A DNA stretch of 32,000 nt. Origin: Candidatus Saccharimonadota bacterium. GTDB lineage: Bacteria > Patescibacteriota > Saccharimonadia > Saccharimonadales > Saccharimonadaceae. The translations under genes were made by a program, and so were the position numbers. This document shows, one piece after another, positions 4,910 to 28,632 of the stretch. Where the stretch lies: assembly GCA_017511645.1 (NCBI GenBank), contig JAFWJH010000003.1, forward strand, positions 70,297-102,296, in the 5' to 3' direction. Every line of letters starts with the position of its first letter. Position 1 is the stretch's first letter. The notes beneath the pieces are model-generated. The model was given only the letters and a program-made list of their open reading frames with translations. It was not told the DNA's origin and ran no database searches.

Positions 4910-4910
4910 C

Positions 4911-5633: not shown

Positions 5634-6782
5634 ATGAAAATATTATTTTCATCTGACGTGTGTGAATACCAAATAAGCGGGGCTCATAATTCAAACGCTG
5701 CATTAAAAGATGAGCTAAGAAAACTGGGGCATGATGTCCGGATGCTTGTTTTATCTCCAAACGGTAAATCATATTTTAAGGATAATAATTATTATATTGC
5801 GTCTAAGCCGATTCCGGTTTATCCGGGGGCAAGGTTTAGTTTAAAAACACATGATAAGTTGATACAAAAAATCATAGATTGGAAACCCGATATTGTCCAT
5901 GCTCAATCAGAATTTACCACTAAAATTCTTGCAAATAAAATAATAAAAACCCTCAATATTCCATTTGTGGCAACATGCCATACATTATACGAAGATTATA
6001 CTGAATATTTTTGCCCAAACAAGAAACTTGGCAAGAAAATTGTGAAAATTATGAGCAATAAAATCTATAACACTTCGGCGACGCTAATTGTCCCGTCGGA
6101 AAAGGTAAAAGCTGTAATGGAAAAATATGGTATAAAATGCCCGATAGAAATCATTCCTTCCGGTATAGATATGAATATCTATAAGAAAAGATTGCCCAAA
6201 AAAGAAAAAACGAAAATTTTATCCGAATTAGGTTTGCAAAATTCTAATAAATATTTAGTAACAGTATGCAGATTGGCAGCAGAAAAGAATATAGATGAGT
6301 TACTTAGGTATTTGCCAGCATTAACAAAAAGAGACAAAGACATAAAACTAATCATAGTGGGGGATGGACCATATAAAACAAAATTAGTTAAGGAAATAAA
6401 TAAATTGGATATGAGTGACCATGTGATTTTTACCGGTGCGATTTTGCGAGATGAAATATACAAATATTATCAATTGGGGAATATTTTCGTATCAGCATCA
6501 ACGAGTGAGACGCAAGGGCTAACATATGTAGAGGCATTAGCATCTGGGATGCCCATGGTCTGCAAAAAAGATAAATGTCTAGATAGGATAATAGAAAAAG
6601 GTAGCAACGGATTTGTTTTTGAAAATGAAGATGATTTTATAGAAGGTGTTGAGTCTATATTAAACAATAAGATATTGATGGATGATATGCATAAAAATTC
6701 CTTGAAAAAATCCAATAATTTTAGCAAAGAAGAGTTTGGTATAAAAGTCGAAAGATTATATAAAAAAGTATTAGACATATAG
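5634..6782 (+). CDS. GT4 glycosyltransferase, diacylglycerol glycosyltransferase (glycolipid synthase)-like
   Basis: 382 aa. It has MKILFSSD.., ..DIVHAQSEFT.., ..CHTLYEDYTEY.. and the E-x7-E region ..SETQGLTYVEALASGMPMV... This resembles the alpha-monoglucosyl-DAG synthase type of GT4 enzymes. Confidence 0.8.
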   Translation: MKILFSSDVCEYQISGAHNSNAALKDELRKLGHDVRMLVLSPNGKSYFKDNNYYIASKPIPVYPGARFSLKTHDKLIQKIIDWKPDIVHAQSEFTTKILANKIIKTLNIPFVATCHTLYEDYTEYFCPNKKLGKKIVKIMSNKIYNTSATLIVPSEKVKAVMEKYGIKCPIEIIPSGIDMNIYKKRLPKKEKTKILSELGLQNSNKYLVTVCRLAAEKNIDELLRYLPALTKRDKDIKLIIVGDGPYKTKLVKEINKLDMSDHVIFTGAILRDEIYKYYQLGNIFVSASTSETQGLTYVEALASGMPMVCKKDKCLDRIIEKGSNGFVFENEDDFIEGVESILNNKILMDDMHKNSLKKSNNFSKEEFGIKVERLYKKVLDI

Positions 6783-6803
6783 CCGTAATTTTGGCGGCGG
6801 GTA

Positions 6804-6812
6804 TGATATAAT
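6804..6812 (+). promoter_or_regulatory. extended -10 element TGATATAAT for the 17-gene operon
   Basis: Exact TGATATAAT in the 209-nt gap between the GT4 stop (6782) and the preferred SDR start (6992). Confidence 0.45.
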
Positions 6813-6819
6813 AAAAATA

Positions 6820-6991
6820 GTTCTAGATTTCAATTTCATGGTAAGTCTACCCCTAACAAGGTAGTGTGAAATATCGAACCCTGCGTGGAGCACTCGCTCC
6901 AGTTGGCTCGATAGCTTACTGTGAAAAATGAAGTCTAGAACACTCCATGGCGAGTGTTCCACTTGGTTATGGGGATAGTATGGAGAAAATC
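6820..6991 (+). promoter_or_regulatory. long, relatively GC-rich structured 5' leader (candidate cis-regulatory RNA, class unknown)
   Basis: Local hairpins: CTACC/GGTAG (6847-6864), TGGAGC/GCTCCA (6886-6901) and GAACACTC/GAGTGTTC (6938-6959). A possible long-range helix pairs GTTCTAGA (6820-6827) with TCTAGAAC (6934-6941) and competes with the last hairpin. CTCC at 6943-6946 is complementary to the SD GGAG at 6982-6985. Confidence 0.3.
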
Positions 6992-7990
6992 ATGAAAAAG
7001 ATCTCACGTAGAGTATTAGTTACTGGCGCTTATGGATTTTTAGGTAAGTATGTTATTGCCGAATTTTTGGATAACGGATATATTGTCGTTGCTTTTGGCA
7101 GAAATAAGCAAAAAATGTCAGCTTTAAAGCAGCAATATCCGGAAATCGAATTGGCTTACGGAGATTTATGTAGTTCGTCAGATTGCTTAAAGGCTACGAA
7201 AAATATTAATATTGTCGCTCATCTCGGTGCACTTTCAACTGTGTGGGGTAAACGATCCGATTTTTTAAAAACCAATGTCGATGGTACTAAAAACATCTTG
7301 GAAGCCTGTCGTAAAAACAAAGTTAATAAACTCGTGTACATATCATCTCCCAGTATTTATGCTGGCAAATCCGATAAATTAGATATAGACGAAGATGATT
7401 ATGATAGAGACAACAAATTGAACTACTATATTGAAAGTAAAATTCTAGCCGAGAAAGCTATTGAGAAATATGATGACATTAATTGGACAATACTTCGCCC
7501 ACGAGGATTATTTGGGGTAGGTGATACAAGTATCGTTCCTAGACTAATACATGCTAACAAGAAAATAGGATTGCCTTTGTTTGGGGGCGGAAAGAACTAT
7601 GTAGATATGACGTGCGTCGAAAATGTCGCATACGCAGTGAGGCTCGCAGCAGAAAGTAAAAAGTCATCACATAAGATTTATAATATCACCAATGATGAGC
7701 CGCAAGAATTCAAAGGATTGCTGGAGGAATTATTTAAGCAACTTGGCGAAACACCAAGATACAAGAATATTAACTTAAGATTCGCCATCTCGACCGCAAC
7801 CGCCATAGAATCAATTTATAAGGTTTTTCATATTTATAAAGAGCCACCAATTACTAAATATACTATCTGCACTTTGGGCTATAGCCAGACTTTAAATATT
7901 GACAAAGCGAAGCGAGATTTGGGATATAAACCAAAGATGACATTAAGCGAAGGAATCGAGAAATATGCAACCAGCCATCAAAAGTGTTAA
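6992..7990 (+). CDS. extended SDR, NAD(P)-dependent epimerase/dehydratase / 3-beta-HSD-like reductase
   Basis: Rossmann motif VLVTGAYGFLG near the N-terminus and YxxxK as YIESK. I prefer the ATG at 6992 (GGAG 6 nt upstream) over the ORF-track start at 6947. Confidence 0.8.
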   Translation: MKKISRRVLVTGAYGFLGKYVIAEFLDNGYIVVAFGRNKQKMSALKQQYPEIELAYGDLCSSSDCLKATKNINIVAHLGALSTVWGKRSDFLKTNVDGTKNILEACRKNKVNKLVYISSPSIYAGKSDKLDIDEDDYDRDNKLNYYIESKILAEKAIEKYDDINWTILRPRGLFGVGDTSIVPRLIHANKKIGLPLFGGGKNYVDMTCVENVAYAVRLAAESKKSSHKIYNITNDEPQEFKGLLEELFKQLGETPRYKNINLRFAISTATAIESIYKVFHIYKEPPITKYTICTLGYSQTLNIDKAKRDLGYKPKMTLSEGIEKYATSHQKC

Positions 7991-8759
7991 GTATTTTAGT
8001 TGTGGATATTGTACAAATAACCTCGGTCGAGTTTTTAAGGGTATGCGTGGCGAAAAAAGAAAATTCCCAGCCGGAGCATTTTTGATTGAGCACGCTAAGC
8101 ATGGGCTGATTCTTTTTGATACAGGTTATTCTGCTAATATTTGTAAAACTGGTTTTGTTGGTAGAGCTTATAATTTCTTTAATCCCACATTAGTAGAAGA
8201 AAATGACGAGCTAAAGTATCAACTTAGTAAAATCGGGACTCGGCCGGAGGATATTAAGACAATCATACTGTCGCATTTGCACCCAGACCATATTGGTGGG
8301 CTTAGGAGTTTTGGCAAGGCGAATTTTATTGTCTCAAAAGAAACTATAAATACATACAAAAATAGAAGGATACGAGATTTAATAATGCAGCGTTTCTTTC
8401 CTGCCGATTTTGAAGATAGGGCTAACGTAATTTCAGATAAAATGATGGTAACTGAAGTTCTTGGTGCACTGAAAGGTTATGACTTGTTTAATGACGGCAG
8501 TTTAATTTTATTAAAGCTAGGTGGTCATGCTAGCGGTCAATTGGGCACTCTAATAGATAATAAGATTTTGTTAGCAGCAGACTCATGTTGGGGGAATGAT
8601 TTAATTGATCTATCGTACCATATGAAGTTTCCCGCATCATTAATACAGGACAATATGAGAGAATATCGTAATACCCTAGATAACTTAAAGTTATTAAAGA
8701 AAAAAGGTATTAATCTGGTATTTAGTCATGATGTAAATAATAAAAAGGAGCTACTATGA
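7965..8759 (+). CDS. MBL-fold metallo-hydrolase (lactonase/thioesterase-like)
   Basis: 264 aa with SHLHPDHIGG (HxHxDH) and later GGHASG and D/H ligand positions. It overlaps the SDR gene by 26 nt. Confidence 0.8.
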   Translation: MQPAIKSVKYFSCGYCTNNLGRVFKGMRGEKRKFPAGAFLIEHAKHGLILFDTGYSANICKTGFVGRAYNFFNPTLVEENDELKYQLSKIGTRPEDIKTIILSHLHPDHIGGLRSFGKANFIVSKETINTYKNRRIRDLIMQRFFPADFEDRANVISDKMMVTEVLGALKGYDLFNDGSLILLKLGGHASGQLGTLIDNKILLAADSCWGNDLIDLSYHMKFPASLIQDNMREYRNTLDNLKLLKKKGINLVFSHDVNNKKELL

Positions 8760-10033
8760 ATAAAGGCTTAATTCTTAAAACATTTATTCGTGCCCGCTAT
8801 TTTCACAAATTTAAAAGTCGAAGGAGGCTGGAAAAATATCAGCAAAAGCAGACAAAAAAACAACTAGATTTCTTCGAACGCCATTCCCCGTATTTCCAAA
8901 AGTTTAGTGGCAAAACTTTTGAAGAGTTGCCGTATATGAATAAAAAAGTCATGATGGATAATTTTGACAGAATGAATACAGCCGGAATATCAAAGGACGA
9001 TGCCCTTAAGCTAGCTATTAATAGCGAAAAAAGCCGTGATTTTTCAGAAAAGCTGAATGGCTACTCTGTTGGGCTGTCATCTGGGACAAGTGGACACCGT
9101 GGGGTGTTTGTCCTTAGCGACGACGAAATCGCAACGTGGGTGGGTGGCATGATGGCAAAAATGCTACCGAAAGGTAAGATCTTTGGGACCAAAGTTGCGT
9201 TTTTCCTTCGGGCCGACAATAACTTATATGAGTCATCAAATAGTAAGATACTTAAATTTGAGTTTTTTGACATCTTAAAGCCAATGGAACAAAATATAAT
9301 AAAATTACAGGAGTTTCAGCCGACAATTTTGGTCGCACCGCCATCTGTACTGCTCATACTAGCGGAGACTGCCAAAGTCAAGAAGCTGAGCATTAATCCA
9401 GTAAGGATTATATCAGTTGCAGAAGTATTAACAGAAAAAGACGAACAATATTTGAAAAGGGTTTTCAAGCAAAAGATAATATACCAAGTATATCAATGCA
9501 CCGAAGGGTTCCTTGGATACACTTGCGAGTATGGCTCCCTACATCTCAACGAGGATGTTGTAGTGGTTGAAAAGGAGTATCTTGACGACACAAGATTTAC
9601 TCCGGTTATCACGGACTTTGTTAGGACGACTCAACCTATTGTCAAATATCGATTAAACGATATTTTGGTTGAAGATAGAAGGCCATGTAAATGCGGGACA
9701 TCTATGACAAGGCTTAAAAAGATCGAAGGAAGGATGGATGATGTTTTTGAATTTGATGGCGTAAATGATAGAACGATAAAAGTATTCCCTGATTTTATTT
9801 CCAGAGTGGTACTCTACGTGCCCAAAATAAAGAATTATAGAGTAGTACAAGAATCATCCAAAAAAGTCATTTTTTATCTAGATAATATAGACATTGAAAA
9901 TCAAAGACTAATCAAAGAAGAGTTAAAAACTCTCGCTAAGAGAATGCGTTTCAAAATGCCAGCCACTACTTTTAAGAAATATGAATCTGATTTTAGTAAA
10001 AAGATGAAGCGAGTGGAAAGGATAAAAAAATGA
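8756..10033 (+). CDS. PaaK / coenzyme F390 synthetase-related adenylate-forming enzyme
   Basis: 425 aa with GLSSGTSGHRGVF (P-loop-like ANL motif of the PaaK/F390 clade). ATGA start/stop overlap with the MBL gene. Confidence 0.7.
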   Translation: MNKGLILKTFIRARYFHKFKSRRRLEKYQQKQTKKQLDFFERHSPYFQKFSGKTFEELPYMNKKVMMDNFDRMNTAGISKDDALKLAINSEKSRDFSEKLNGYSVGLSSGTSGHRGVFVLSDDEIATWVGGMMAKMLPKGKIFGTKVAFFLRADNNLYESSNSKILKFEFFDILKPMEQNIIKLQEFQPTILVAPPSVLLILAETAKVKKLSINPVRIISVAEVLTEKDEQYLKRVFKQKIIYQVYQCTEGFLGYTCEYGSLHLNEDVVVVEKEYLDDTRFTPVITDFVRTTQPIVKYRLNDILVEDRRPCKCGTSMTRLKKIEGRMDDVFEFDGVNDRTIKVFPDFISRVVLYVPKIKNYRVVQESSKKVIFYLDNIDIENQRLIKEELKTLAKRMRFKMPATTFKKYESDFSKKMKRVERIKK

Positions 10034-10962
10034 GAAATTGTAAAATATCGGGCTATGGATATTATTTACCAAAAAACATAGTGACATTTGGTAATCAAAT
10101 TAGGTACAGAGCTTCAGGCAAGGAAAATCAACTTTTTATGGCGACAAATGCCGCTAAAAAGGCGATGAAAAATGCTAGGCTAAAACCAGAAAATATTGAT
10201 TTGATAATAGCCGCTTCGGCAGTAGGTATCCAACCAATCCCCTGTACGGCAAGCTTAATTCATGAACAAATAATGAACGACTACAACATTCCTGCTATGG
10301 ATATTAATACTACTTGTACTAGCTTTATAACCGCACTGGATATTGCATCGTATCTGATTGCAGCTGGAACATATAAAAATATCTTAATTGTATCAAGCGA
10401 GCTGGCTAGCCCTGGGCTTCCGAAAGATAAAAAAGAAATCTATGAACTATTCTCTGACGGAGCCGCGGCAATTGTACTTTCTCATACTAACGATACGAAA
10501 CGAGGTGTAATAGCCTCTAAACAGTGCACTTGGTCAGAAAGCGCGCACGCGACAGAAATTGTAGGTGGATTAACCGGACTTAATGCCACTAAAATGAACA
10601 ATAAAAACCGAGACAAATATTACTTTAAAATGGAGGGGCTCGATATATTACGTGCATGCACGCGAAAATTACCAAAAATGTTTGACGATTTTGAAAAAGA
10701 GACTAATCTATCATTGGACGATGTAGACTTAGTAATCCCACATCAGGCGAGCAAGGCATTGCCCTTGATTATGAAAAAATTGGGAGTACCAGAAGAAAAA
10801 TACGTTAATCGTGTTGATAACTTTGGTAATCAAGTGTCCGTTTCGGTTCCATTCATGTTATGCAAAATGCTAGAAGAAGGAAAAATCCATACTAGTGACA
10901 AAGTAATGCTATGTGGGACTGCAGCAGGGTTAACATCTAATATATTATTAATGGAGATATAA
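10030..10962 (+). CDS. KAS III / FabH-like thiolase-fold condensing enzyme
   Basis: 310 aa. Candidate Cys-His-Asn triad in DINTTCTSF, VIPHQAS and NFGNQVSVS. ATGA overlap with the upstream gene. Confidence 0.85.
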   Translation: MRNCKISGYGYYLPKNIVTFGNQIRYRASGKENQLFMATNAAKKAMKNARLKPENIDLIIAASAVGIQPIPCTASLIHEQIMNDYNIPAMDINTTCTSFITALDIASYLIAAGTYKNILIVSSELASPGLPKDKKEIYELFSDGAAAIVLSHTNDTKRGVIASKQCTWSESAHATEIVGGLTGLNATKMNNKNRDKYYFKMEGLDILRACTRKLPKMFDDFEKETNLSLDDVDLVIPHQASKALPLIMKKLGVPEEKYVNRVDNFGNQVSVSVPFMLCKMLEEGKIHTSDKVMLCGTAAGLTSNILLMEI

Positions 10963-10963
10963 A

Positions 10964-11200
10964 ATGTTGGAAGAATTTAAAAAGTTTCTAGATGAGGAAT
11001 TGGGCATAGACGATGATATTACATTAGAAACTAGCCTAAGAGACGATTTGATGATTGATAGCTTGGCGACTACGCAATTAGTGCTCTCACTTGAAGAAAA
11101 ATACAATATAAAAGTAGAGCAAAGCGAGCTCGCTAAACTAAAGACCGTAAAGAATTGTTTGGATTTGCTAGCGGAGAAAGGTATAGAAAGTGCCAATTGA
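10964..11200 (+). CDS. acyl carrier protein (ACP-1)
   Basis: 78 aa, acidic, with the phosphopantetheine site motif LMIDSLATTQLV. Confidence 0.8.
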   Translation: MLEEFKKFLDEELGIDDDITLETSLRDDLMIDSLATTQLVLSLEEKYNIKVEQSELAKLKTVKNCLDLLAEKGIESAN

Positions 11201-11555
11201 TAAACTGAAGAAGATTTTAGCCGATTTCGATAGTTCTGATGCAACCGAATTTGAGTACGAGGATGCCGATTTTAGAGTTTCTATAAAGAAGAATGGTCCT
11301 AAAACGGATCAAGAAAAGACTGACTATTCAGATAAACATATTTTGTCGCCGCTGGTAGGCACTTATTATGATGTATCCCCAACCATACAAATAAACGAAA
11401 GAGTTAAAGAAGGTCAGTCTTTATGTATCATTGAAAGCATGAAAATAATGAATAAAATTTGTGCACCGGCTGATTTGATTATTAGAAAAACGTATTTTGA
11501 AAACGGAGAGAGTGTAGAATTTGGCTCTAAGCTTTTTGAGGTTGATTATATATGA
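11190..11555 (+). CDS. accB: biotin carboxyl carrier protein of acetyl-CoA carboxylase
   Basis: 121 aa with a GTG start overlapping ACP-1 by 11 nt. Biotinyl-lysine motif CIIESMKIMNKI in a lipoyl/biotinyl-type C-terminal domain. Confidence 0.8.
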   Translation: MPIDKLKKILADFDSSDATEFEYEDADFRVSIKKNGPKTDQEKTDYSDKHILSPLVGTYYDVSPTIQINERVKEGQSLCIIESMKIMNKICAPADLIIRKTYFENGESVEFGSKLFEVDYI

Positions 11556-16444: not shown

Positions 16445-16965
16445 AAAGAATTGTTCTAGAAAGCATCAATAGCACCAATGATCATGCAGAAAAAATAGCA
16501 GACAAAACGCATGAAAATATTCTAATCATTGCAAAATCCCAAACGAATGGGCGCGGGCAGTTCGATAGGAAATGGTTTTCCGAACCAAATAAAAGTATTA
16601 CTCTTAGTTTCCTGTTGAAAAACAAAAGTGGAGACAAAAAGTTAAGGAAAGATGCTTTAGAACACATACCAGTTATCATTTCTAAAAAGCTAAATGAACT
16701 ATACGGCGTAAATTCCAAAGTGGTTTTACCGAATGATATCAAGATTAATAATAAAAAAGTCTGTGGTATTTTGATTGAGGCGCATTTTAAGGCCGATACA
16801 CTAGAATATGTCGTAGTAGGAGTAGGGATTAATCTTAATAATGATGATTTTCCGGATGACATAAAGTCGATTGCGACATCTATCAAATTAGAGATAAAAA
16901 AAGATTCAGATGCGGACATTCTCACGGATAAATTAGAGGAGGCCATAGAGGAACTATATGACTAG
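16441..16965 (+). CDS. birA: biotin-[acetyl-CoA-carboxylase] ligase, catalytic domain only
   Basis: QTNGRGQFDRKW matches the GRGRxGRxW biotin-ligase motif, and CGILIE..VVGVGINLN is present. I prefer the ATG at 16441 (ATGA overlap with fabF, GGAG upstream) over 16429. The protein is short (174 aa) and has no HTH domain. Confidence 0.75.
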   Translation: MKRIVLESINSTNDHAEKIADKTHENILIIAKSQTNGRGQFDRKWFSEPNKSITLSFLLKNKSGDKKLRKDALEHIPVIISKKLNELYGVNSKVVLPNDIKINNKKVCGILIEAHFKADTLEYVVVGVGINLNNDDFPDDIKSIATSIKLEIKKDSDADILTDKLEEAIEELYD

Positions 16966-18526
16966 GGCGAATAATTTCTCTGCGATGATTTCTGAAAGTG
17001 TCCAAAAGTATGGGCAGAAAACTTTCTTCGTCGGCGAAAATTTTTCAAAGACCTACGAAGAATTTTATAATGATATCCAAAAATTGTCAGGTTACTTTGT
17101 GGACAATAGTTTAGTTGGCAAAAAGATTGGGATTTATGCGTCTAATTCTTATAGTTGGCTACTATTATTCTTTGCCGTGGCTGCTGACGTTGGAACAATA
17201 GTGCCACTCGACAAAGAGCTGCCAGAAAAAGAGCTTGCATTATCTGCTAAGCGTATCGGTTTGGATTTCATTTTCTATGATGATTTAACGAAAGACAAAG
17301 TAAATTGTCTTCCTAAAAATATCCATGCAGAACATATAAATAAAATAGACGACATCATCAGAGAGACGCCAAATCGTAAAGTCAAAAAAACGTCGAAACG
17401 CGACTGCGCCGCACTATTTCTAACTTCCGGCACAACGTCTAAATCTAAAATCGTCATGTTATCTGAAAAAAACTTAGTTTCTTGTGCCTATTCTTCAGCC
17501 GCCGCTTTTAAGCTAAAATCCACGGATAGGTATTATACAATTTTGCCACTCCATCATACGCTTACTCTAATGTGTGCAGTGTTGGTGCCTATTACCAATG
17601 GATGCTCGATTTGTTTTAGTAAAAATATTAAAGACATGCAGAGAGAAATGTGCTTTTACCAGCCAACTGCACTCGTTGTGGTACCGAGGCTGCTCGAATA
17701 CATTATGAATAATATAAAACTCACAGCTAAGAAAAAACACAAAGAAAAGGCTCTGCAAAAACTAATTTTTATATCAAGAGGAGCGAGGCTATTACACATT
17801 GATATAAGAAAGCCCTTATTCTCTAGTATTCACGCCAGATTTGGAGGCAAGGTTCGCATGATCGCTTGTGGTGGAGCAGAGCTAGATCAAAGGGTTTTTA
17901 ACTTCCTGGACGATTTAGGATTTAATATTTACCAGGGATACGGGTTAACGGAGAGCTCACCGATTTTAACCATTCGCGGAATGTTTGTAAAAAGTAAAAT
18001 TGGCGTCGGTAGGCCGCTAAATGGCGTACATCTAAAAATAGCCAATCCAGATGCGGCTGGTATTGGAGAAATTATTGCCAAAGCTCCACAAGTTATGTTG
18101 GGTTATTATGATGATAAAAAAGCTACAGAAGATGTTTTAAAGAATGGTTGGCTCTACACGGGTGATTTAGGCAGGATAAGAAATGATGGTAATCTAGAAG
18201 TAGTTGGTAGAAAGAAAAACGTCATTGTGACCAGCAACGGTAAAAACATCTATCCAGAGGAACTAGAAACACTGATTAATTATAGCAACATAGTTAAAGA
18301 GAGCATCGTAAATGGAGTTCAAAAGAAATCCGGCTTACAAATTATCGCTACGATAGTACCAGAAGATAAAAACCGGAAAGATAAGTCTCTCGACAGCAAA
18401 ATAAGTAAACTTATTAAAGACATAAATGCAGAATTACCGGATTATAAACGTATCAATAAATACATAATCAAGAAAGATGAATTCGAGAAAACCACTACAT
18501 TAAAGATAAAGAGAGGTGGAAAGTGA
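16958..18526 (+). CDS. ANL-family AMP-dependent acyl ligase (fatty acyl-CoA/ACP ligase or OleC/LstC-like)
   Basis: 522 aa with LFLTSGTTSKSKIV, YQGYGLTES, TGDLG and GRKKNVIVTSNGKNIYPEELE. Confidence 0.85.
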   Translation: MTRANNFSAMISESVQKYGQKTFFVGENFSKTYEEFYNDIQKLSGYFVDNSLVGKKIGIYASNSYSWLLLFFAVAADVGTIVPLDKELPEKELALSAKRIGLDFIFYDDLTKDKVNCLPKNIHAEHINKIDDIIRETPNRKVKKTSKRDCAALFLTSGTTSKSKIVMLSEKNLVSCAYSSAAAFKLKSTDRYYTILPLHHTLTLMCAVLVPITNGCSICFSKNIKDMQREMCFYQPTALVVVPRLLEYIMNNIKLTAKKKHKEKALQKLIFISRGARLLHIDIRKPLFSSIHARFGGKVRMIACGGAELDQRVFNFLDDLGFNIYQGYGLTESSPILTIRGMFVKSKIGVGRPLNGVHLKIANPDAAGIGEIIAKAPQVMLGYYDDKKATEDVLKNGWLYTGDLGRIRNDGNLEVVGRKKNVIVTSNGKNIYPEELETLINYSNIVKESIVNGVQKKSGLQIIATIVPEDKNRKDKSLDSKISKLIKDINAELPDYKRINKYIIKKDEFEKTTTLKIKRGGK

Positions 18527-19665
18527 AACCAATTCGAAAAATCACAAATATAGAGCAATTATATGAGGATGTACAGAGCGCAACCAATGCATATGCAATA
18601 CAGTTCATTCTAAAAACTAGCAGCATTAAAAATAAAGATATAATTGAATGTGTAATTAGGCGAGTAATAAAAGAATGCCCAGAATTTAATGTCTATCTAA
18701 GAAGGGGTAAATTTTATCCACAGCAGCATCCAATCAGTATCCAAGATATTAAAATCAAGGATTCTATTGTCTATAGTCTAGATTTATTTAATCAAAAAAT
18801 AGATCTAATTAGCCACTCAATGGAAGTCTATCTTGTGAAGGCGCCCAAGAGCGATTATTTAGTGTTTCGATTCGCCCATTCGGCAATGGACGGAAAGAGT
18901 GCCCTTCTTTTTATGCAAAACATTGTAAATCTACTAGGCGGGAAAAAGCCACTAAAATGCAAAAAAGCTATCTCCGAGAAAGATTTCTTAAAGAAACTAG
19001 ACTACTACAAGAAGAAAGAACCAAAATTACCCCGAATTATCCATGACGAAGCGTCGATTATCAAACAATACACGACAAGGTGGCAAGTCGTACAATTAGA
19101 CAAGTATGTTTCGGGTATTATAGCCAAACTTTCGTGCCTTTTAGCTCGGGAATTTGAAAGCGACCGGATAAGAGTAATGGTGCCTGTAGATTTAAGACGT
19201 CACGACGGCAACAATCCATATATAGGCAATCTGACCTTGCCAGTTTTTCTAGATGTAGATAAGAGCGATAGTTATACCAAGATTAATGGTGAGCTGTTGT
19301 ATAGCTTGAAGAACAGCAAAGAGTTAAACATCGGCAATACTTTGAACAATTATTATTGTCGTATGCCAAGTTTGTTGCGAAAGACGGGCGTAAAAATTGG
19401 ATGCATGGCAAGTCGACACTACAATAAATTTTCCGTCGGCGCCGTCATATCGCATTTAGGCAGAATAGATTTAAATGAATATTCCAATAAATATTTTAAA
19501 GCTAAAGATTTCGTAGACTTATCAATACAACAACCTCTAGGTGCATTCTCGATAGTTATAGTAGAATGTTCCCATAAGACAAATATCAGTATAGGTTACT
19601 ACGGAGATCAATTCACTGAAGAATATATGAAGTCTCTCATAAAAAAGATAGAGAGGTTAGCATGA
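18523..19665 (+). CDS. condensation/acyltransferase-like protein with HxxxDG motif
   Basis: 380 aa with a GTG start in a GTGA overlap. FRFAHSAMDGKS fits the HxxxDG catalytic motif of C-domain, WS/DGAT and PapA-type acyltransferases. The rest is not recognisable by eye. Confidence 0.45.
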   Translation: MKPIRKITNIEQLYEDVQSATNAYAIQFILKTSSIKNKDIIECVIRRVIKECPEFNVYLRRGKFYPQQHPISIQDIKIKDSIVYSLDLFNQKIDLISHSMEVYLVKAPKSDYLVFRFAHSAMDGKSALLFMQNIVNLLGGKKPLKCKKAISEKDFLKKLDYYKKKEPKLPRIIHDEASIIKQYTTRWQVVQLDKYVSGIIAKLSCLLAREFESDRIRVMVPVDLRRHDGNNPYIGNLTLPVFLDVDKSDSYTKINGELLYSLKNSKELNIGNTLNNYYCRMPSLLRKTGVKIGCMASRHYNKFSVGAVISHLGRIDLNEYSNKYFKAKDFVDLSIQQPLGAFSIVIVECSHKTNISIGYYGDQFTEEYMKSLIKKIERLA

Positions 19666-20081
19666 AAAGTCAAAATTGCCGAGTCGTTAATGGGCTAGTA
19701 ATTCATCACATAGGAGTTGCCACCAATAATTTAGATGAATTAACGGACGAATATCTGCGGGATGGTTATCAAATTACAAACGAGGTCTATGACCCCGGAC
19801 AAAAGGCTAAGTTGCGGTTACTTAGTAAGGATAATCAAAACAGCATAGAGCTAATATATACAGATAATCCAGAATCGCGAGTTTTCAATTTGTCACACAA
19901 CAACTATAAGAAAGAATACCACACCTGTTTTAAAATAAACAATCTTGATCGCGCCATTAAAGTATTCAAAAAAGATGGCTATTCTTTAATCACTAATATT
20001 GAAATAGCTAAATTGTTCAATGGCAGGATATGCTTTATGTACAAGAGCGGTAAACTAATAGAATTAATGGAGGAAATATGA
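19662..20081 (+). CDS. VOC (glyoxalase/bleomycin-resistance/dioxygenase) family protein, methylmalonyl-CoA epimerase-like
   Basis: 139 aa with two beta-alpha-beta-beta-beta half-modules: ..IHHIGVATNNLDE.. and ..YHTCFKINNLDRAIKVFKKDGY...ELMEE. Confidence 0.6.
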   Translation: MKSQNCRVVNGLVIHHIGVATNNLDELTDEYLRDGYQITNEVYDPGQKAKLRLLSKDNQNSIELIYTDNPESRVFNLSHNNYKKEYHTCFKINNLDRAIKVFKKDGYSLITNIEIAKLFNGRICFMYKSGKLIELMEEI

Positions 20082-21649
20082 AAAAGATTTACTGTTATCG
20101 TGATACCGCAATTGAATACTTATTCAAAGACGTAGAAACTATATCGTATAGCGCATATGGTGATATTAAACTATTGAACGACGACACAGATATAATGATT
20201 TTCTATATGCTACCATATGATTATTCTATTAAAGATTTAGTGTCGACGATTAATAGCTATTTTGAACGAGCGAAATACATCATAAACAATTATCCAAATA
20301 GGACAATATTTGCAATAACCCTACATAATTATTTTTACGAATCATTCGTTTTCGGAAATAATGAATTAGAGAAAGCTATTAACTCATATAATGAATATCT
20401 ATATAGCCAGAAAAATGTCAGGGTTATAGATATAGCGCCATTTTATAATAATCATAACGACGTATTTAACCCAAAGTATTATTACTTATATAATGCAATA
20501 ATAAACCCGTCTCTTGCGAAAGATTTTCGGCGTTTTATTTTAGATAAGATGGCGCTGTTTCGAGGAACTCGAAAAAAATGCCTAATCCTAGATTTAGATA
20601 ATACTTTGTGGGGTGGTATTCTGGGTGAAGACGGATTGGCAAATTTACAAATCAGCGGCTCCTATCCAGGCAATTGTTTTCATAGTTTTCAACAAATGGT
20701 TTTGGAGCTAAAAAATCAAGGTATTCTGCTAGGGATTTGCAGCAAAAATAACTATAATGATGTAGTCCTGTGCTTCGAAAAAAGAGATGATTTGGTATTG
20801 TCTCTGGATGATTTTGCTGCCAAAAAGATAAATTGGTCAGAAAAAAGACTTAATATTTCTGAATTAGCCAAGGAACTGAATATTGGTTTAGATAGCATTG
20901 TTTTTATAGATGATAGCCCAGCAGAAAGAGAAAACGTAAAAGCATTGGATGGGGTCACAGTCTTAGACTTCCCAGATTCGCCCTATAAAATGGTTGGGCA
21001 CTTCGCCAAAGATTTTTATAGATATTTCGGAACATATCTACTAACAGAAGACGACGTAAATAAAAATATTTACTATAAACATAAAACGGAAAGTGAAGAG
21101 TTGAGAAGCAGAGTCGAAAACGAGGATGAGTTTATAAAAAAATTGAAAATCAAAATAGCCTACGAGACCATAGACGACAATAATAGCGACAGAATCGCTC
21201 AACTGATCAATAAAACGAATCAGTTCAATTTAACAACTAGGCGTTACGATAAAACCGAATTAGCTAATATGACTGACGCGCTAATAATAGCAATAAAAGT
21301 AAGCGATAAATTCGGAGATCTTGGCCTTACCGGAGTTGCAATAGTTAGAAAAAACAAAGAAGAAGCAACTATAGATACATTTTTAATGAGTTGCAGAATA
21401 TTAGGCAGAAAAATTGAGCGAGAGTTTCTAAAAATCGTATTAAATGAACTAAAAATATTAGGGGTTAAAACGGTCATAGGCGAGTACATAGATAGCAAAA
21501 AGAACGAGCAGACTAAAACATTCTATAGTGATAATGGATTTCGAAAAGTTCCAAATCATTCTCGTGAGGTTCAGCGTTTCAAATACACGCTAACTAAACC
21601 GTTGAAGTATAATAATAATTACATAGTGGAGAAAAAAGATGGAAAATAG
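20078..21649 (+). CDS. FkbH-like HAD-IIIC family protein
   Basis: 523 aa. HAD motif I in CLILDLDNTLWGGILGEDG, then ..GICSKNN.. and ..VFIDDSPAERE... The C-terminal domain has ..FLMSCRILGRKIEREFL.., typical of FkbH-like proteins. Confidence 0.8.
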   Translation: MKKIYCYRDTAIEYLFKDVETISYSAYGDIKLLNDDTDIMIFYMLPYDYSIKDLVSTINSYFERAKYIINNYPNRTIFAITLHNYFYESFVFGNNELEKAINSYNEYLYSQKNVRVIDIAPFYNNHNDVFNPKYYYLYNAIINPSLAKDFRRFILDKMALFRGTRKKCLILDLDNTLWGGILGEDGLANLQISGSYPGNCFHSFQQMVLELKNQGILLGICSKNNYNDVVLCFEKRDDLVLSLDDFAAKKINWSEKRLNISELAKELNIGLDSIVFIDDSPAERENVKALDGVTVLDFPDSPYKMVGHFAKDFYRYFGTYLLTEDDVNKNIYYKHKTESEELRSRVENEDEFIKKLKIKIAYETIDDNNSDRIAQLINKTNQFNLTTRRYDKTELANMTDALIIAIKVSDKFGDLGLTGVAIVRKNKEEATIDTFLMSCRILGRKIEREFLKIVLNELKILGVKTVIGEYIDSKKNEQTKTFYSDNGFRKVPNHSREVQRFKYTLTKPLKYNNNYIVEKKDGK

Positions 21650-21854
21650 AATAAAAGAAATAATGGAACAGACATTTAGGCAAAGTATAAACGACAACTT
21701 CTCTAAAAATGATACTGACAAATGGGACTCGTTTACTCATTTAGATCTGATTGTAAAATTAGAACAGGAGTTTAAAATTTCTTTTTCACCAGAAGAGATA
21801 GGAAGCATTGAATCTTATAATGATATAAAAAAGATTATTAAGAGTAAGTTCTAA
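21639..21854 (+). CDS. acyl carrier protein (ACP-2), partner of the FkbH-like protein
   Basis: 71 aa with the site motif KWDSFTHLDLIVKLE. It overlaps the FkbH-like gene by 11 nt. Confidence 0.7.
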   Translation: MENRIKEIMEQTFRQSINDNFSKNDTDKWDSFTHLDLIVKLEQEFKISFSPEEIGSIESYNDIKKIIKSKF

Positions 21855-21857
21855 AAG

Positions 21858-22379
21858 ATGAAAGTCTACATAACGCGAATTAAAAACGGAGATCGTAAAA
21901 CATTATCTAGCCAAATATTGAAATATTCATATAGAGATACATATGGCAGAAATATAAATATTGCAAAAATTCACAAAGGCGAATACGGGAAACCCTATTA
22001 TGACAATAATTTCTACTATAATATCAGCCATTCCAAAAATTTTCTTTGTATAGCGACGGACGAAAACGAGATTGGAATAGATATAGAAGAGTCGCGGTCT
22101 GTCAACTCCAATCTTTCGAAAAGGATTCTGGCAAAAGATGAGGATGTCATCGATGAAGACATTTTAAATAATTGGGTGATTAAGGAAGCTTACAGTAAAT
22201 ATCTAGGTCTCGGTCTTAATGTTGATTTTCGCGATATATCTACAAGCGATATTATGGGGCATGAAAATGTCACCAATTTATCTACGAACGACTATGTTTG
22301 TTTTGTTATTTCAAAAAAACCATCAGATATTAAGGTAACTTACCTAAAAGAAGAGGATTTAGTCAAAGCTGGTTGTTGA
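21858..22379 (+). CDS. Sfp-type 4'-phosphopantetheinyl transferase (short)
   Basis: 173 aa with GKPYY..YYNISHSKNF..IGIDIEE.. and WVIKEAYSKYLGLG. Confidence 0.8.
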   Translation: MKVYITRIKNGDRKTLSSQILKYSYRDTYGRNINIAKIHKGEYGKPYYDNNFYYNISHSKNFLCIATDENEIGIDIEESRSVNSNLSKRILAKDEDVIDEDILNNWVIKEAYSKYLGLGLNVDFRDISTSDIMGHENVTNLSTNDYVCFVISKKPSDIKVTYLKEEDLVKAGC

Positions 22380-22545
22380 TAAAAGCATTCAATGCTTCTC
22401 TAATCCCACATCCTGGGCAAATCTTGGTTTTGTTGTCCTTGCGCGATAGCGCAGGGTAATCTAAATAATATTTTCCGCATTCAGGGCATTTATGGCCCTC
22501 CTGAGCGGCTTTTAAGTCAGAGTAGGGTGTTTTACCGTATTTCAT
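22363..22545 (-). CDS. small zinc-ribbon protein, unknown function
   Basis: 60 aa with CPECG..(19 aa)..CPGCG. ATGA-type overlap with the upstream minus-strand ORF. Its 3' end overlaps the PPTase gene by 17 nt, convergently. Confidence 0.5.
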   Translation of the reverse strand: MKYGKTPYSDLKAAQEGHKCPECGKYYLDYPALSRKDNKTKICPGCGIREALNAFINNQL

Positions 22546-22841
22546 AAATCCACCGAGCAGACACGCGTTAAACCGAATTTATGCCCCAATTCCTCCCACA
22601 TACTATCGGGCGCATCCTCTTCCAGGACTCGCCAGACCGGGTAATTATAGTCGAGCATAATTTTTGCAACATCTTTTGGATCCACCATTAGTTGGCAATA
22701 GTAGCCAGCTGTAGTTTCGCCTTCAATTATAATTGGATCATTTTCTTCAGTCTTTAATACTTCTTCCAAGTACTTATATTCGACCGCAATAGCTTCATTT
22801 ACGAGCTTAACGGCAGGTGCTAATTTATCATCTTTTTCCAT
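22542..22841 (-). CDS. hypothetical acidic protein
   Basis: I prefer the internal Met (MEKDDKL.., 99 aa) because the longer ORF-track start at 22892 runs through A/T-rich promoter-like sequence. No family recognised. Confidence 0.45.
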   Translation of the reverse strand: MEKDDKLAPAVKLVNEAIAVEYKYLEEVLKTEENDPIIIEGETTAGYYCQLMVDPKDVAKIMLDYNYPVWRVLEEDAPDSMWEELGHKFGLTRVCSVDL

Positions 22842-22898
22842 AATGTTTGTATTTAACCTTATTCTGTAAATTTTACAAGTCAAAAAAAACAAATAACG

Positions 22899-28618: not shown

Positions 28619-28632
28619 TTTAGGAGGCAAAA

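Follow-up and report, generated by a model that had tools for sequence, protein, structure and literature searches.

A 32,000-nucleotide stretch of DNA from a Candidatus Saccharibacteria bacterium, referred to below as the window, contains a mobile island. Its cargo is read here, with moderate confidence, as a modular and self-sufficient set of discrete type-II FAS/PKS-like enzymes with an NRPS-type condensation (C) domain, the most likely product of which is a glycosylated, glycerate-containing acyl lipid. Judged by its gene content, the 18-gene pathway looks complete and would have its own malonyl supply. The preliminary description of this DNA could name no pathway for the locus, and indeed no matching characterised cluster or literature account was found.

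The island and its host

3047..3055, no strand: attL-like direct repeat of 9 bp, TGGTGCGCG, marking the island's left end (identical 9-mer at the tRNA-Leu 3′ end, 24900-24908)
3358..3798, +: island ORF of 146 aa, function unassigned (no Pfam or PHROG match)
3920..4909, −: AbiEii-type nucleotidyltransferase toxin (PF08843, 138 bits)
4911..5510, −: DUF6088 protein beside AbiEii, where an antitoxin would lie (PF19570, 101 bits)
22363..22892, −: two small island ORFs, a 60-aa zinc-ribbon protein (phrog_2945, 55.7 bits) and a 116-aa protein (no match found)
23299..24963, +: large serine recombinase, integrase (Resolvase, Recombinase, Zn_ribbon_recom; phrog_95 integrase, 232 bits)
24900..24990, −: tRNA-Leu(GAG), intact, with the attR-like repeat as its 3′ end, 24900-24908 (ARAGORN; Rfam, 52.4 bits; sequence)

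The island measures about 21.9 kb (3047-24908), with the 9-bp 3′-terminal sequence of tRNA-Leu repeated at its two ends. The large serine integrase, whose gene reads through the att site and ends within the tRNA gene, would have placed the island at the 3′ end of tRNA-Leu(GAG). An integrase-bearing island had already been proposed; the serine integrase is confirmed, and the tRNA-Leu repeat now makes the ends definable. The left junction sequence is also found in a second Saccharibacteria species (locus L010), in which the island is 98% identical and the flanking genes about 68%. Identity to this locus is 98.3% from position 3046 onward, against 67-69% in the upstream flank. The G+C content of the island is 0.31-0.40, compared with 0.40-0.45 in the flanks. 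Both small ORFs at 22363..22892 are kept in loci L001 and L003, and the same island is recovered in independent assemblies (ENA, NCBI and Logan data).

The flanking proteins match Candidatus Saccharibacteria MAG proteins exactly. The flank has the gene order rpsB-tsf-frr-uppS-rseP, without pyrH and cdsA, and its EF-Ts is just 196 aa long. The host is a gut or rumen Candidatus Saccharibacteria (TM7) bacterium with a reduced genome, which bears out the earlier impression of a metabolically reduced neighbourhood.

Organization of the cluster

5634..6782, +: GT4 glycosyltransferase, nearest to glycolipid (diacylglycerol) glucosyltransferases (Glycos_transf_1, Glyco_transf_4)
6783..6991, +: intergenic leader ahead of the 17-gene operon (TATAAT-like box; inverted repeat with a 10-bp stem, 6936-6961)

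All 18 ORFs between 5634 and 22379 lie on the forward strand. The 17 genes from the short-chain dehydrogenase/reductase (SDR) to the phosphopantetheinyl transferase (PPTase) are joined by 16 junctions consisting of 1-26-nt overlaps or 1-3-nt gaps, most of the overlaps being of the 4-nt ATGA/GTGA type. The layout and the junction measurements thus agree with the original claim of 18 same-strand genes, the last 17 tightly joined. The GT4 gene is separated from the SDR gene by 164 nt if the longest ORF (start 6947) is taken, and by 209 nt if the SDR starts at 6992, the start which agrees with homologue lengths of 326-329 aa and which had been assumed from the beginning. An Rfam search of the leader matched no family.

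Every one of the 18 family assignments made earlier was upheld by HMM, motif, structure or profile tests, and catalytic motifs are intact in each enzyme inspected. HMM searches of the cluster proteins returned no family match for FabG, FabZ, FabI, PlsX/Y/C or a thioesterase. The proposed absence of FabG, FabZ and FabI therefore holds, none being hidden in these proteins under another name, as does the statement that this is neither a FAS-II nor a phospholipid operon. The sole reductase is the extended 3beta-HSD/OleD-like SDR, for which adh_short (20 bits) and KR (18 bits) both remain below cut-off. The AccC, AccA, AccD, BCCP, FabD, GT4 and SDR proteins score below the NCBIfam equivalog cut-offs; they may therefore act on substrates other than those their names imply. 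Ka/Ks values of 0.08-0.27 (against L003 and L010) indicate purifying selection on the cluster. Together with the intact motifs and the independent assemblies, such low values favour a retained function.

Module A

6947..7990, +: extended SDR, 3beta-HSD/OleD-like, probable start 6992 (3Beta_HSD, 125.6 bits; 3Beta_HSD/Epimerase)
7965..8759, +: MBL-fold hydrolase, lactonase-like (Lactamase_B; HLHPDH motif)
8756..10033, +: adenylate-forming enzyme, F390-synthetase-related (TIGR02304, 537.6 bits; cut-off 251.9)
10030..10962, +: KAS III-type condensing enzyme (ACP_syn_III and ACP_syn_III_C; triad C96/H238/N267)

Module A consists of an OleD-like SDR, a lactonase-like MBL protein, the TIGR02304 adenylating enzyme and a KAS III. 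The SDR carries the GxxGxxG and YxxxK motifs. Its top two NCBIfam matches are both 2-alkyl-3-oxoalkanoate reductase (OleD) models (205 and 194 bits; cut-off 580), and its closest PDB entry is NSDHL (110 bits). These nearest relatives have in common that NSDHL, like the beta-keto-acid reductase OleD, acts on a 3-hydroxy/3-oxo carboxylate. The MBL protein is unlike the known MBL-fold thioesterases and resembles lactonases instead, its top matches being the AttM/AhlS AHL lactonases and 4-pyridoxolactonase and, in the PDB, the GcL and AiiB lactonases. The third enzyme, described previously as PaaK/F390-like, clears the TIGR02304 cut-off; PaaK is its nearest PDB structure (45 bits), and its alignment (A1) shows no variation in the SSGTSG, YQCTEG and EGRxDD motifs. 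Among PDB matches of the KAS III, which has a Cys-His-Asn triad, Aquifex FabH scores highest (139 bits), followed by MxnB (133), CorB (130), PqsD (76) and OleA (about 53).

Module B

10964..11200, +: ACP1 (PP-binding, 41 bits; DSL Ser33)
11190..11555, +: biotin carboxyl carrier protein, BCCP (Biotin_lipoyl; TIGR00531, 85 bits, below cut-off 115; SMKIM, Lys75)
11552..12814, +: biotin carboxylase, AccC-like (Biotin_carb_N, CPSase_L_D2, Biotin_carb_C; 463 bits, below cut-off 597)
12814..14436, +: carboxyltransferase, AccD-AccA fusion (ACCA, 254 bits; Carboxyl_trans)
14433..15221, +: malonyl-CoA:ACP transacylase-like (FabD-like) protein, shortened (Acyl_transf_1, 82 bits; fabD, 135 bits, below cut-off 261)
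15218..16444, +: FabF-type elongating ketosynthase (PRK07314, 445 bits; cut-off 387; C161/H300/H334)
16429..16965, +: biotin-protein ligase (BirA), catalytic domain only (TIGR00121, 128.8 bits; cut-off 83.1; GRGQFDRKW motif)

Module B comprises ACP1, the acetyl-CoA carboxylase (ACC) proteins, FabD, FabF and BirA. In the carboxyltransferase, residues 32-270 correspond to accD and 284-537 to accA, with a CxxC...CxxC zinc finger at the N-terminus; its scores are 243 against a cut-off of 357 for AccA and 231 against 317 for AccD. The FabD-like protein has an internal deletion of about 45 aa and keeps GQG, GLSLG Ser48, Arg73 and His153. The BirA match spans positions 3-167 of the 235 in the model. 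FabG, FabZ and FabI are presumably missing from the rest of the host genome too, as is general for Saccharibacteria; module B and the PPTase appear to be carried because the host could not lend a FAS II of its own.

Module C and the glycosyltransferase

16958..18526, +: ANL acyl ligase, long-chain-fatty-acid-CoA-ligase-like (AMP-binding, 201.6 bits; AMP-binding_C_3)
18523..19665, +: stand-alone NRPS condensation-type domain, 380 aa, remnant of a C-A-T module (AF2 and Foldseek)
19662..20081, +: VOC/glyoxalase-fold protein (Glyoxalase_4, 43.7 bits)
20078..21649, +: FkbH-family glyceryl-S-ACP synthase-like protein (TIGR01686, 270.4 bits; cut-off 146.65; HAD-IIIC, 64.8 bits)
21639..21854, +: ACP2, carrier protein partner of FkbH (hhalign to the ACP1 family)
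21858..22379, +: 4′-phosphopantetheinyl transferase (ACPS, 34.3 bits; cut-off 25; IGIDIE and WVIKEAYSK motifs)

The ANL ligase, the NRPS C domain, VOC, FkbH, ACP2 and the PPTase form module C. The top NCBIfam match of the ligase is PRK06187 (203 bits, below cut-off); in the PDB it matches MenE and fatty-acyl-CoA synthetases. The 380-aa protein matched no family in Pfam and NCBIfam searches. It had been called an HxxxDG acyltransferase-like protein, and the motif is real (H119, D123 and G124 are invariant); the assignment can now be refined. The AF2 model (pLDDT 88.9) has an NRPS condensation-domain fold (Foldseek against the PDB, prob 1.0), matching AzeD, the C domains of LgrA and SrfA-C, and the RzmA starter C domain (E 1e-18 to 1e-16). 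The protein is also 42-54% identical to residues 1-380 of 955-970-aa C-A-T proteins in loci L003, L004 and L005, which identifies it, by homology, as what is left, as a stand-alone protein, of a C-A-T module that relatives have intact. The A-T part and a second C-like protein, both kept by relatives, are missing from the window variant; therefore, its product may be truncated or module C partly disabled.

The earlier FkbH-like assignment stands on TIGR01686 and on the DLDNT and SCRILGR motifs, a Pfam search giving no match. The VOC protein, which scores 34.8 bits with the methylmalonyl-CoA epimerase model (below cut-off) and 48 bits with glyoxalase I in the PDB, always adjoins FkbH in the cluster loci and also adjoins an FkbH homologue in one Bacteroidetes locus. 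The second ACP matches ACP models weakly (at most 24 bits); profile-profile comparison shows it to be homologous to the ACP1 family (hhalign 97%, E 1.3e-10), and its invariant WDS Ser pairs with the DSL Ser in that alignment.

The top NCBIfam match of the GT4 is an alpha-monoglucosyl-DAG synthase (215 bits, below cut-off 400), and the diacylglycerol/glycolipid glycosyltransferases Mgs and IagA/BgsA are two of its top three matches. In locus L093, from another lineage, a GT4 copy of 65% identity overlaps the cluster's final gene, and such translational coupling argues that the GT4 is a genuine member of the pathway.

Distribution of the modules

In each of the 80 genome loci examined, mostly from mitis-group Streptococcus, the four genes of module A keep together, the set being complete where the contig permits; a glycosyltransferase gene is usually their neighbour. 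The streptococci have this core cassette alone, without module B. Of 83 fetched loci (±10 kb), 68 contain a GT1 gene, which adjoins the cassette or cluster in those with its position inspected (L007, L013, L022, L077). In Saccharibacteria, GT4 takes the place of GT1, and the Erysipelotrichaceae and Clostridia variants have GT1, UDP-galactopyranose mutase and GT4. Module B accompanies the cassette in Saccharibacteria, in one 'Bacilli' MAG and in MAGs of Erysipelotrichaceae and Clostridia. Locus L094 combines the C-domain, FkbH, VOC and ACP2 genes with module A, without module B, adjoining LolA-like, FtsX/ABC and DUF1302 envelope-export genes. FkbH-ACP(-VOC) cassettes of Bacteroidetes terminate in an acyltransferase; thus, the triad behaves as an acyl-donor module. 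The earlier reading of the locus is supported, with a refinement of the 18-gene unit. Three modules, each with an evolutionary history of its own, have been put together in it, and since the core cassette occurs widely in Firmicutes, what is unusual is only the combination and the host.

Proposed pathway and product

The chemical steps below are all drawn from family resemblance. BirA would biotinylate BCCP, and the PPTase would convert ACP1 and ACP2 into their holo forms. Malonyl-CoA would be made by AccC, BCCP and AccDA and loaded onto ACP1 by the FabD-like enzyme. The TIGR02304 enzyme would adenylate a carboxylic acid starter, although its role may be either starter activation or late re-activation of an acid; in the full cluster, the ANL ligase would also activate a scavenged fatty acid. 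KAS III and FabF would then catalyse decarboxylative Claisen condensations with malonyl-ACP1. As there is no reductive cycle, the chain would stay a beta-keto or poly-beta-keto intermediate, to be released or opened by the lactonase-like hydrolase, and a beta-hydroxy acid would arise when the OleD/NSDHL-type SDR reduces the beta-keto acid. No release enzyme or exporter is evident within the window. FkbH would place a glyceryl unit on ACP2, the VOC enzyme would isomerise or epimerise it, and the C domain would esterify this glyceryl-ACP2 arm with the acyl arm. Finally, the GT4 would add a hexose.

In line with the preliminary description, we infer a lipid built on a glycerate or sugar scaffold. 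The product is probably a so far undescribed sugar-bearing lipid, and the four-gene core cassette is also present in many oral streptococci, where it is unstudied.

Host genome and integrative island

The flanking genes encode S2, EF-Ts, RRF, UppS, RseP and a substrate-binding protein, all of them exactly matching proteins from a Candidatus Saccharibacteria MAG, and the 90% cluster of the S2 protein takes in Ca. Nanosyncoccus alces. The preliminary description considered this neighbourhood to be metabolically reduced, which agrees with the gene order rpsB-tsf-frr-uppS-rseP (27932-31844), from which pyrH and cdsA are absent. The gap between tsf and frr is only 138 nt, cdsA is missing between uppS and rseP, and EF-Ts comprises only 196 aa. 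Such an order, together with the short EF-Ts, is typical of a reduced CPR genome. The G+C content of the cluster is 0.31-0.40, versus 0.40-0.45 in the flanks.

The ends of the mobile segment are defined by comparison with L010, a locus from a second Saccharibacteria species representative. The two sequences share 98.3% identity from position 3046 onwards, but only 67-69% upstream of this breakpoint, in the SecG and substrate-binding-protein genes. The breakpoint sequence (3047-3055) is TGGTGCGCG in both the window and L010, and an intact tRNA-Leu(GAG) at 24900-24990 has these same 9 nt, which take in the CCA, as its 3′ end. The gene of a large serine recombinase (23299-24963), with Resolvase, Recombinase and zinc-ribbon domains and a match to a PHROG integrase, reads across the att site. 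The repeats of the tRNA end, the recombinase and the break in identity to L010 together define the cluster as the cargo of an integrative island of ~21.9 kb (3047-24908). The island previously proposed from the presence of an integrase has thus gained definite ends, set by 9-bp target-derived repeats, and the same element occurs in L010. As independent assemblies contain the same island, a binning or assembly artefact is ruled out. A repeat search returned no long att repeats; the 9-bp repeat came from the boundary comparison with L010.

The island consists of one ORF without known function, an AbiEii/DUF6088 pair, the GT4 glycosyltransferase gene, the 17-gene operon, two small ORFs and the integrase. 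The AbiEii toxin and DUF6088 genes (3920-5510) are located at the left end, with overlapping stop and start codons, and probably form a type IV toxin-antitoxin or abortive-infection system that stabilizes the island. The two small ORFs, which may encode island directionality or regulatory factors, are as follows:

22363-22892, minus strand: two small ORFs between the PPTase and integrase genes, kept in the related loci L001 and L003
22363-22892, minus strand: their products, a 60-aa CxxC...CxxC zinc-ribbon protein (phrog_2945) and a 116-aa acidic protein

A phage or prophage origin was considered and rejected, as phage structural genes are absent, IMG/VR holds no relative of the C domain, and only the integrase and one small ORF match PHROGs.

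The 9-mer of the att repeat occurs three times in the window versus 0.13 expected. At 1891-1902, inside the substrate-binding-protein gene and ~1.15 kb to the left of the attL-like repeat, 12 nt (TGGTGCGCGCGA) exactly repeat the tRNA-Leu 3′ end at 24900-24911. This copy may be due to chance or may represent a secondary or old att-like site. To the right of the tRNA-Leu, two adjacent plus-strand ORFs (347 and 312 aa; 25093-27125) are host genes with no significant Pfam match.

Organization and coding content of the operon

ORF calling recovered the 18 consecutive plus-strand genes (5634-22379) of the preliminary description, and the tight operon reported there is present: at all 16 junctions between the SDR and PPTase genes, neighbouring genes either overlap by 1-26 nt or lie 1-3 nt apart, mostly with ATGA/GTGA junctions. 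Between the GT4 and SDR genes there are 164 nt; a start of the SDR at 6992, which fits the lengths of its homologues, would make this 209 nt. Pfam and NCBIfam searches of the cluster proteins upheld the list of gene families. Of the assignments based on motifs, those of the F390-related and FkbH enzymes pass their HMM thresholds; the "HxxxDG" protein matches no family and has the fold of a C domain.

Within the longer spacer, the leader at 6783-6991 (209 nt) carries a TATAAT-like box and an inverted repeat with a 10-bp stem (6936-6961). In L011, a further Saccharibacteria locus, this spacer is lacking and GT4 abuts the SDR gene. A riboswitch or leader RNA ahead of the operon was rejected, since Rfam matches nothing but tRNA. 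A promoter and terminator scan of the cluster yielded counts no higher than in shuffled sequence and is hence uninformative.

Among the known systems to which the cluster is related is type II fatty acid synthesis (accABCD, fabD, fabH, fabF, acpP). Both have an ACC of separate subunits, a malonyl transacylase, an ACP and ketosynthases of the KAS III and KAS II types. The condensing enzymes, ACP, transacylase and ACC all retain their catalytic residues. These include C96/H238/N267 of KAS III, C161/H300/H334 of FabF, and Ser48, Arg73 and His153 of the FabD-like enzyme, which has an internal deletion of ~45 aa. The active-site residues are also intact in both ACPs (DSL in ACP1), BCCP, BirA, the PPTase, the MBL protein, the SDR, FkbH and the ANL ligase. 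By domains, the ACC set is complete: biotin carboxylase, BCCP with Lys75 in SMKIM, and both the alpha and beta carboxyltransferase parts (AccC, AccDA). All ACC subunits score below their equivalog cut-offs, so that acetyl-CoA is their presumed substrate, and the substrates of several other cluster enzymes are uncertain for the same reason.

The differences from type II FAS are considerable. The absence of FabG, FabZ and FabI noted in the preliminary description was not due to homologues hidden under other names, as Pfam and NCBIfam reveal none in the 18 cluster proteins. The wider set of FabG ketoreductase, FabZ/FabA dehydratase and FabI/K/L/V enoyl reductase has no match in these proteins or in the rest of the window, and PlsX/Y/C and thioesterase families have none in the cluster. 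Its sole SDR belongs to the extended 3beta-HSD group and reaches 20 bits with adh_short, below the cut-off of 26.6. In addition, most parts are below equivalog cut-offs, the cluster encodes its own BirA and Sfp-like PPTase, and it embeds FkbH, a C domain, a VOC protein, an MBL protein, a PaaK-like ligase and a glycosyltransferase on a mobile island. Between island variants, the Ka/Ks ratio is 0.08-0.27 for AccDA, FabD, FabF, the ANL ligase, PPTase, SDR, MBL, TIGR02304 enzyme and KAS III, which argues that the island genes are in use.

A conserved four-gene cassette and its carriers

When the loci of FkbH, TIGR02304 and C-domain homologues were traced, the cluster resolved into three modules: module A (SDR, MBL, the F390-synthetase-related TIGR02304 ligase and KAS III), module B (ACP1, BCCP, AccC, AccDA, FabD, FabF and BirA) and module C (ANL ligase, C domain, VOC, FkbH, ACP2 and PPTase). 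The search for the same gene order in other genomes found module A in each of the 80 genome loci, with all four genes present unless the contig is too short, and with the order SDR-MBL-TIGR02304-KAS III constant wherever it was examined. These loci come mostly from mitis-group Streptococcus; the further carriers are Enterococcus, cultured Aerococcaceae, Lachnospiraceae, Fusobacterium and a Campylobacteraceae MAG. A scan of species-representative genomes confirmed at least 550 relatives of the TIGR02304 ligase.

Of 83 fetched loci, 68 include an MGT-type GT1 gene, and in those checked for its position it lies next to the cassette or cluster. An uncharacterized five-gene operon GT1-SDR-MBL-TIGR02304-KAS III occurs in S. 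oralis (L077, 6924-12222) and in the loci L007, L012, L021, L022 and L030-L089; its carriers are many genomes of mitis-group Streptococcus, Enterococcus larvae and cultured Aerococcaceae. In S. oralis, the cassette is located between an SP_0198-family lipoprotein gene (with Fe-ADH) and cls, encoding cardiolipin synthase.

The TIGR02304 enzyme scores 537.6 bits against an NCBIfam cut-off of 251.9 and is PaaK-like by PDB search. The ANL core motifs SSGTSG, YQCTEG and GRxDD and the C-terminal Lys are invariant among its homologues in the A1 alignment; no characterized member of the family was apparent from the literature search. The MBL protein resembles AHL lactonases and pyridoxo-lactonases. 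The best two NCBIfam matches of the SDR are OleD models (205 and 194 bits, full length), which exceed the next family by about 100 bits, and a further resemblance is to NSDHL; OleD and NSDHL are both enzymes of 3-oxo or 3-hydroxy carboxylates. Among solved structures, KAS III is closest to FabH (139 bits), followed by CorB and MxnB (133 and 130), PqsD (76) and OleA (~53), and the first scores are too close to separate the functions. CorB and MxnB join chains into alpha-pyrones, and a pathway lacking a reductive cycle would supply the beta-ketoacyl substrates of such a reaction, yet the score of KAS III to them is no better than to genuine FabH.

Such a combination of a thiolase-fold enzyme, a 3beta-HSD-family reductase with OleD as its best family match and an adenylate-forming enzyme in one tight operon recalls the OleABCD and beta-lactone (lipstatin, nocardiolactone) pathways. 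In a route of this kind, KAS III would perform an OleA-type head-to-head condensation and the SDR would give a 2-alkyl-3-hydroxy acid similar to mycolic acid; the TIGR02304 enzyme would then act as OleC (beta-lactone synthetase) and the MBL protein would open or decarboxylate the beta-lactone before glycosylation. The OleD matches, the same four reaction classes as in OleABCD (thiolase-fold condensing enzyme, 3beta-HSD-type reductase, adenylate-forming enzyme, hydrolase) and a classical "mycolate reductase"-like SDR upstream in Enterococcus larvae all speak for it. Nevertheless, this route is rather unlikely. The KAS III is FabH-like rather than OleA-like, the ligase belongs to the TIGR02304 PaaK/F390 clade and not to the OleC type, and the SDR falls well short of the OleD threshold (580). 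The hydrolase is of the MBL fold, and the cluster proteins have no match to an OleB-type alpha/beta-hydrolase; the second ligase of the cluster is a 522-aa ANL enzyme. The glycosyltransferase attached to the cluster is a further difference, and the dedicated malonyl supply (ACC, FabD) in presumably FAS-less hosts argues for a decarboxylative condensation.

Another related system is the Pqs part of alkylquinolone synthesis, in which an MBL-fold hydrolase releases a beta-keto acid after ligase and KAS III-type steps. PqsA, PqsD and PqsE share with module A an acid-activating ligase, a KAS III-type malonyl condensation and an MBL-fold hydrolase, and PqsD is a detectable relative of the cluster KAS III. 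The differences are that the cluster MBL is nearest to AHL lactonases and not to a thioesterase, that the ligase is of another clade, that an OleD-like reductase and a glycosyltransferase are added, and that an equivalent of PqsBC is lacking.

Distribution of modules B and C and the mosaic structure of the cluster

Module B, whole or in part, is found in Saccharibacteria (L009/L093, L010, L011, L024, L092), a "Bacilli" MAG (L008/L006), Erysipelotrichaceae, Clostridia and some Lachnospiraceae MAGs. In the Erysipelotrichaceae-type variants, FabF is followed by GT1, UDP-galactopyranose mutase and GT4. Module C of the fullest clusters comprises the ANL ligase, a C-A-T protein, VOC, FkbH, ACP2, a second C-like protein and the PPTase. 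Only the N-terminal C domain of the relatives' 955-970-aa C-A-T protein survives in the window, which also lacks the second C-like gene. Residues 1-379 of the relatives' protein are 54% identical to the window protein, and its T domain carries the Ser in GLDSLD. The C-only form is kept at 63-99% identity in several protein clusters and is also present in L092.

The comparison with L003 points to exchange between such variants. The identity is 94% over module B and the ANL gene and 92.6% over the integrase end, but falls to 65-67% over module C from the C domain to ACP2 (window 18856-21836, L003 7081-11765). Low identity amid flanking segments of 92-94% indicates that module C was exchanged by recombination inside the operon. 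A distant variant, L094, has C-A-T, VOC, FkbH and ACP2 together with a divergent module A, without module B. It adjoins LolA-like, FtsX/ABC and DUF1302 genes, a setting that suggests a possible role in making an envelope lipid.

Within the cluster of MAG GCA_028709685.1 ("Bacilli bacterium"), the ANL ligase and C-A-T genes are separated by a tyrosine integrase and two opposite-strand small ORFs (L006/L005 4904-6520, and L008 16677-17663), and a second integrase fragment lies upstream. The integrases in and near this cluster imply a mobile context there too.

The loss of the A-T part and of the second C-like gene would be in line with a rival reading of the cluster as a partial FAS II that only elongates or remodels scavenged fatty acids, or as horizontally acquired cargo decaying without a current function. 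The presence of ACC, FabD, a FabH-like enzyme, FabF and ACP would suit the former, although a FabG-type ketoreductase, a dehydratase and an enoyl reductase are all missing. Decay is opposed by the Ka/Ks values of 0.08-0.27 and the intact active sites, by the conservation of the C-only variant itself at 63-99% identity and by the tight translational coupling that has been kept. Either form of this reading is considered hardly probable.

The C domain and the FkbH arm

The 380-aa "HxxxDG" protein (18523..19665) gives a confident AlphaFold (AF2) model (pLDDT 88.9, pTM 0.89) with the two-lobed, CAT-like fold of NRPS C domains. Foldseek against the PDB returned 304 matches at E≤1e-3 (best E ~1e-18), with AzeD at the top (TM 0.77) and the C domains of LgrA and SrfA-C and the starter C domain of RzmA among the others. 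Its motif AHSAMDG retains only the second His of HHxxxDG, and H119, D123 and G124 are invariant. By sequence the protein has no match in the PDB, and in Pfam it matches not Condensation but, weakly, AATase (17 bits). It represents a subfamily of 1255 clusters at 50% identity (E≤1e-3), composed of ~380-aa or ~1000-aa proteins and absent from Pfam and NCBIfam; no relatives were found in IMG/VR. The single-module NRPSs (C-A-T) of lipo-initiation offer a parallel, since the relatives have C-A-T proteins with the T-domain Ser and the fold matches both starter and elongation C domains. They differ in that this C domain is outside the Pfam and NCBIfam subfamilies and stands alone in the window.

FkbH matches TIGR01686 with 270.4 bits (cut-off 146.65) and nothing in Pfam; a sequence search of the PDB yielded only the uncharacterized BF1531. 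It carries the HAD motif DLDNT (172-176) and SCRILGR (438-444), and the Cys of the C-terminal motif has a role in the FkbH family. ACP2 matches the ACP models weakly, but its family aligns to that of ACP1 (hhalign 97%, E 1.3e-10), and the invariant Ser residues coincide in this alignment. The VOC protein resembles methylmalonyl-CoA epimerase and glyoxalase I and might act as an epimerase or isomerase at the alpha-carbon of a thioester.

An FkbH-family enzyme with its own small ACP is also found among the genes of glycerate use in tetronate, methoxymalonyl and lactate-starter pathways. Unlike these, the cluster has no FkbI/K/G-type enzymes and no tetronate acyltransferase/eliminase pair, and its FkbH is partnered with VOC and an NRPS C domain. 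The FkbH-ACP-VOC triad is common to the cluster and Bacteroidetes, where it occurs with an Antibiotic_NAT-type acyltransferase. Such cassettes, with or without VOC, end in this acyltransferase, which supports the triad as an acyl-donor module. FkbH, a small ACP and the acyltransferase are found in Marinifilum fragile and another complete genome (L090 8001-10824, L091 8001-12193), and Bacteroidetes sets sometimes add VOC and a 354-aa protein without known function. The L090 set lies inside a capsule locus and lacks VOC. The FkbH-ACP-NAT set looks like a module that would place a C3 hydroxy-acyl group on an amino sugar.

An acyl-tetronate pathway of the RK-682/agglomerin type, in which FkbH, an ACP and ring closure by a FabH-like enzyme form the assembly logic, was the initial idea. 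The ANL ligase would load a fatty acid, FabF would extend it once, FkbH and ACP2 would give glyceryl-ACP, the KAS III-like enzyme would form the ring from it and 3-oxoacyl-ACP, and MBL and SDR would tailor the ring. The enzyme set is present, the lack of FabG, FabZ and FabI is consistent with one round of elongation, and a lactonase-like MBL would suit a lactone product. The idea was dropped as the main reading after the synteny survey tied KAS III to module A. KAS III is inherited with the SDR, MBL and TIGR02304 enzyme and not with FkbH, from which it is 9 kb away in the window, and more than 70 loci have it without FkbH or ACP2, so that its conserved role cannot need glyceryl-ACP. The FkbH arm is adjoined by a C domain and not by a KS, and Pfam and NCBIfam find no 2-oxoacid-dehydrogenase-type acyltransferase or alpha/beta-hydrolase pair in the cluster. 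A tetronate product is now considered very unlikely.

The glycosyltransferase

The best match of GT4 is Mgs, the alpha-monoglucosyldiacylglycerol synthase (NF049988), with 215.4 bits against an equivalog cut-off of 400. Being full length but below the cut-off, this match marks GT4 as a related lipid-type enzyme and not as an Mgs equivalog. In L093, a GT4 65% identical to that of the window overlaps the last cluster gene, which indicates that GT4 belongs to the pathway.

This relationship raises the alternative of a bulk membrane glycolipid, in which a diacylglycerol-like anchor made from scavenged fatty acids and FkbH glycerate would be glucosylated by the Mgs-like GT4. The proximity of GT4 to alpha-monoglucosyl-DAG synthase and LTA-anchor glycosyltransferases, the resemblance of the ANL enzyme to fatty-acid-CoA ligases, the reduced neighbourhood without cdsA between uppS and rseP, and the envelope-export genes beside the distant variant are consistent with it. 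A bulk lipid is a poor fit with an accessory, mobile and mosaic element whose position differs or is variable among Saccharibacteria. Moreover, streptococci, which make their own membrane lipids, carry the core cassette too, the window offers a single C domain for acylation and no PlsC-type acyltransferase, and the GT4 score falls well short of the Mgs threshold (215 versus 400). A membrane lipid of this sort is accordingly judged improbable.

Proposed pathway and its significance

The whole scheme proposed here is derived from gene content and family resemblance. First, an acid would be activated. Second, KAS III and FabF would condense it with malonyl-ACP1. Third, hydrolytic release and ketoreduction would give a beta-hydroxy acid. 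Fourth, the C domain would esterify this acid with the FkbH/VOC-derived C3 unit on ACP2, possibly involving a fatty acid activated by the ANL ligase as well. Finally, GT4 would glycosylate the product, its nearest GT4 families being glycolipid glycosyltransferases. Modules B and C would thereby contribute exactly the functions of malonyl-ACP supply and condensation (ACC, biotin ligase, transacylase, carrier, PPTase and an elongating KS), and they contain no reductive-cycle functions. To our knowledge, Saccharibacteria have no FAS. The occurrence of module B in hosts such as Saccharibacteria and of module A alone in streptococci fits a core that consumes malonyl-ACP, with module B offsetting the missing FAS of the host.

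The cluster is rated as a putative discrete-enzyme PKS/FAS-NRPS hybrid. The furthest-reaching interpretation, considered less likely than not, is that an episymbiotic CPR bacterium would owe to the island the independent production of glycolipids that contain glycerate and belong to a class so far undescribed, acting in the envelope or as a signal at the interface between episymbiont and host. Under this interpretation, the island would bring ACC, biotin ligase, PPTase, two ACPs, two ketosynthases and FkbH to the uncharacterized module A cassette, which many oral streptococci of humans carry as well. Episymbionts of this type are otherwise generally regarded as incapable of producing malonyl-CoA or acyl chains.

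The CPR bacteria, Saccharibacteria included, are defined by missing functions, among them lipid and fatty-acid synthesis. In a study of cultured Saccharibacteria, NRPS and PKS clusters were reported to be absent (PMC8694215). The literature search returned no paper on the cluster, the module A cassette or TIGR02304 in such a context. All parts come from known families; what is new is their combination, the self-contained supply of cofactors and precursors, the host and the mobility.

Independently of the island, a four-gene cassette with its glycosyltransferase has come to light that has so far gone unstudied. Since its carriers, including mitis-group streptococci, enterococci and Fusobacterium, are culturable and genetically tractable, the chemistry could be solved there first and then transferred to the uncultured host. 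For the Saccharibacteria themselves, a selectively maintained 17-gene operon that moves between species with its own malonyl-CoA supply would mean that episymbionts can acquire specialized lipid chemistry, and it provides a concrete handle on how they may modify their envelope or communicate with their hosts.
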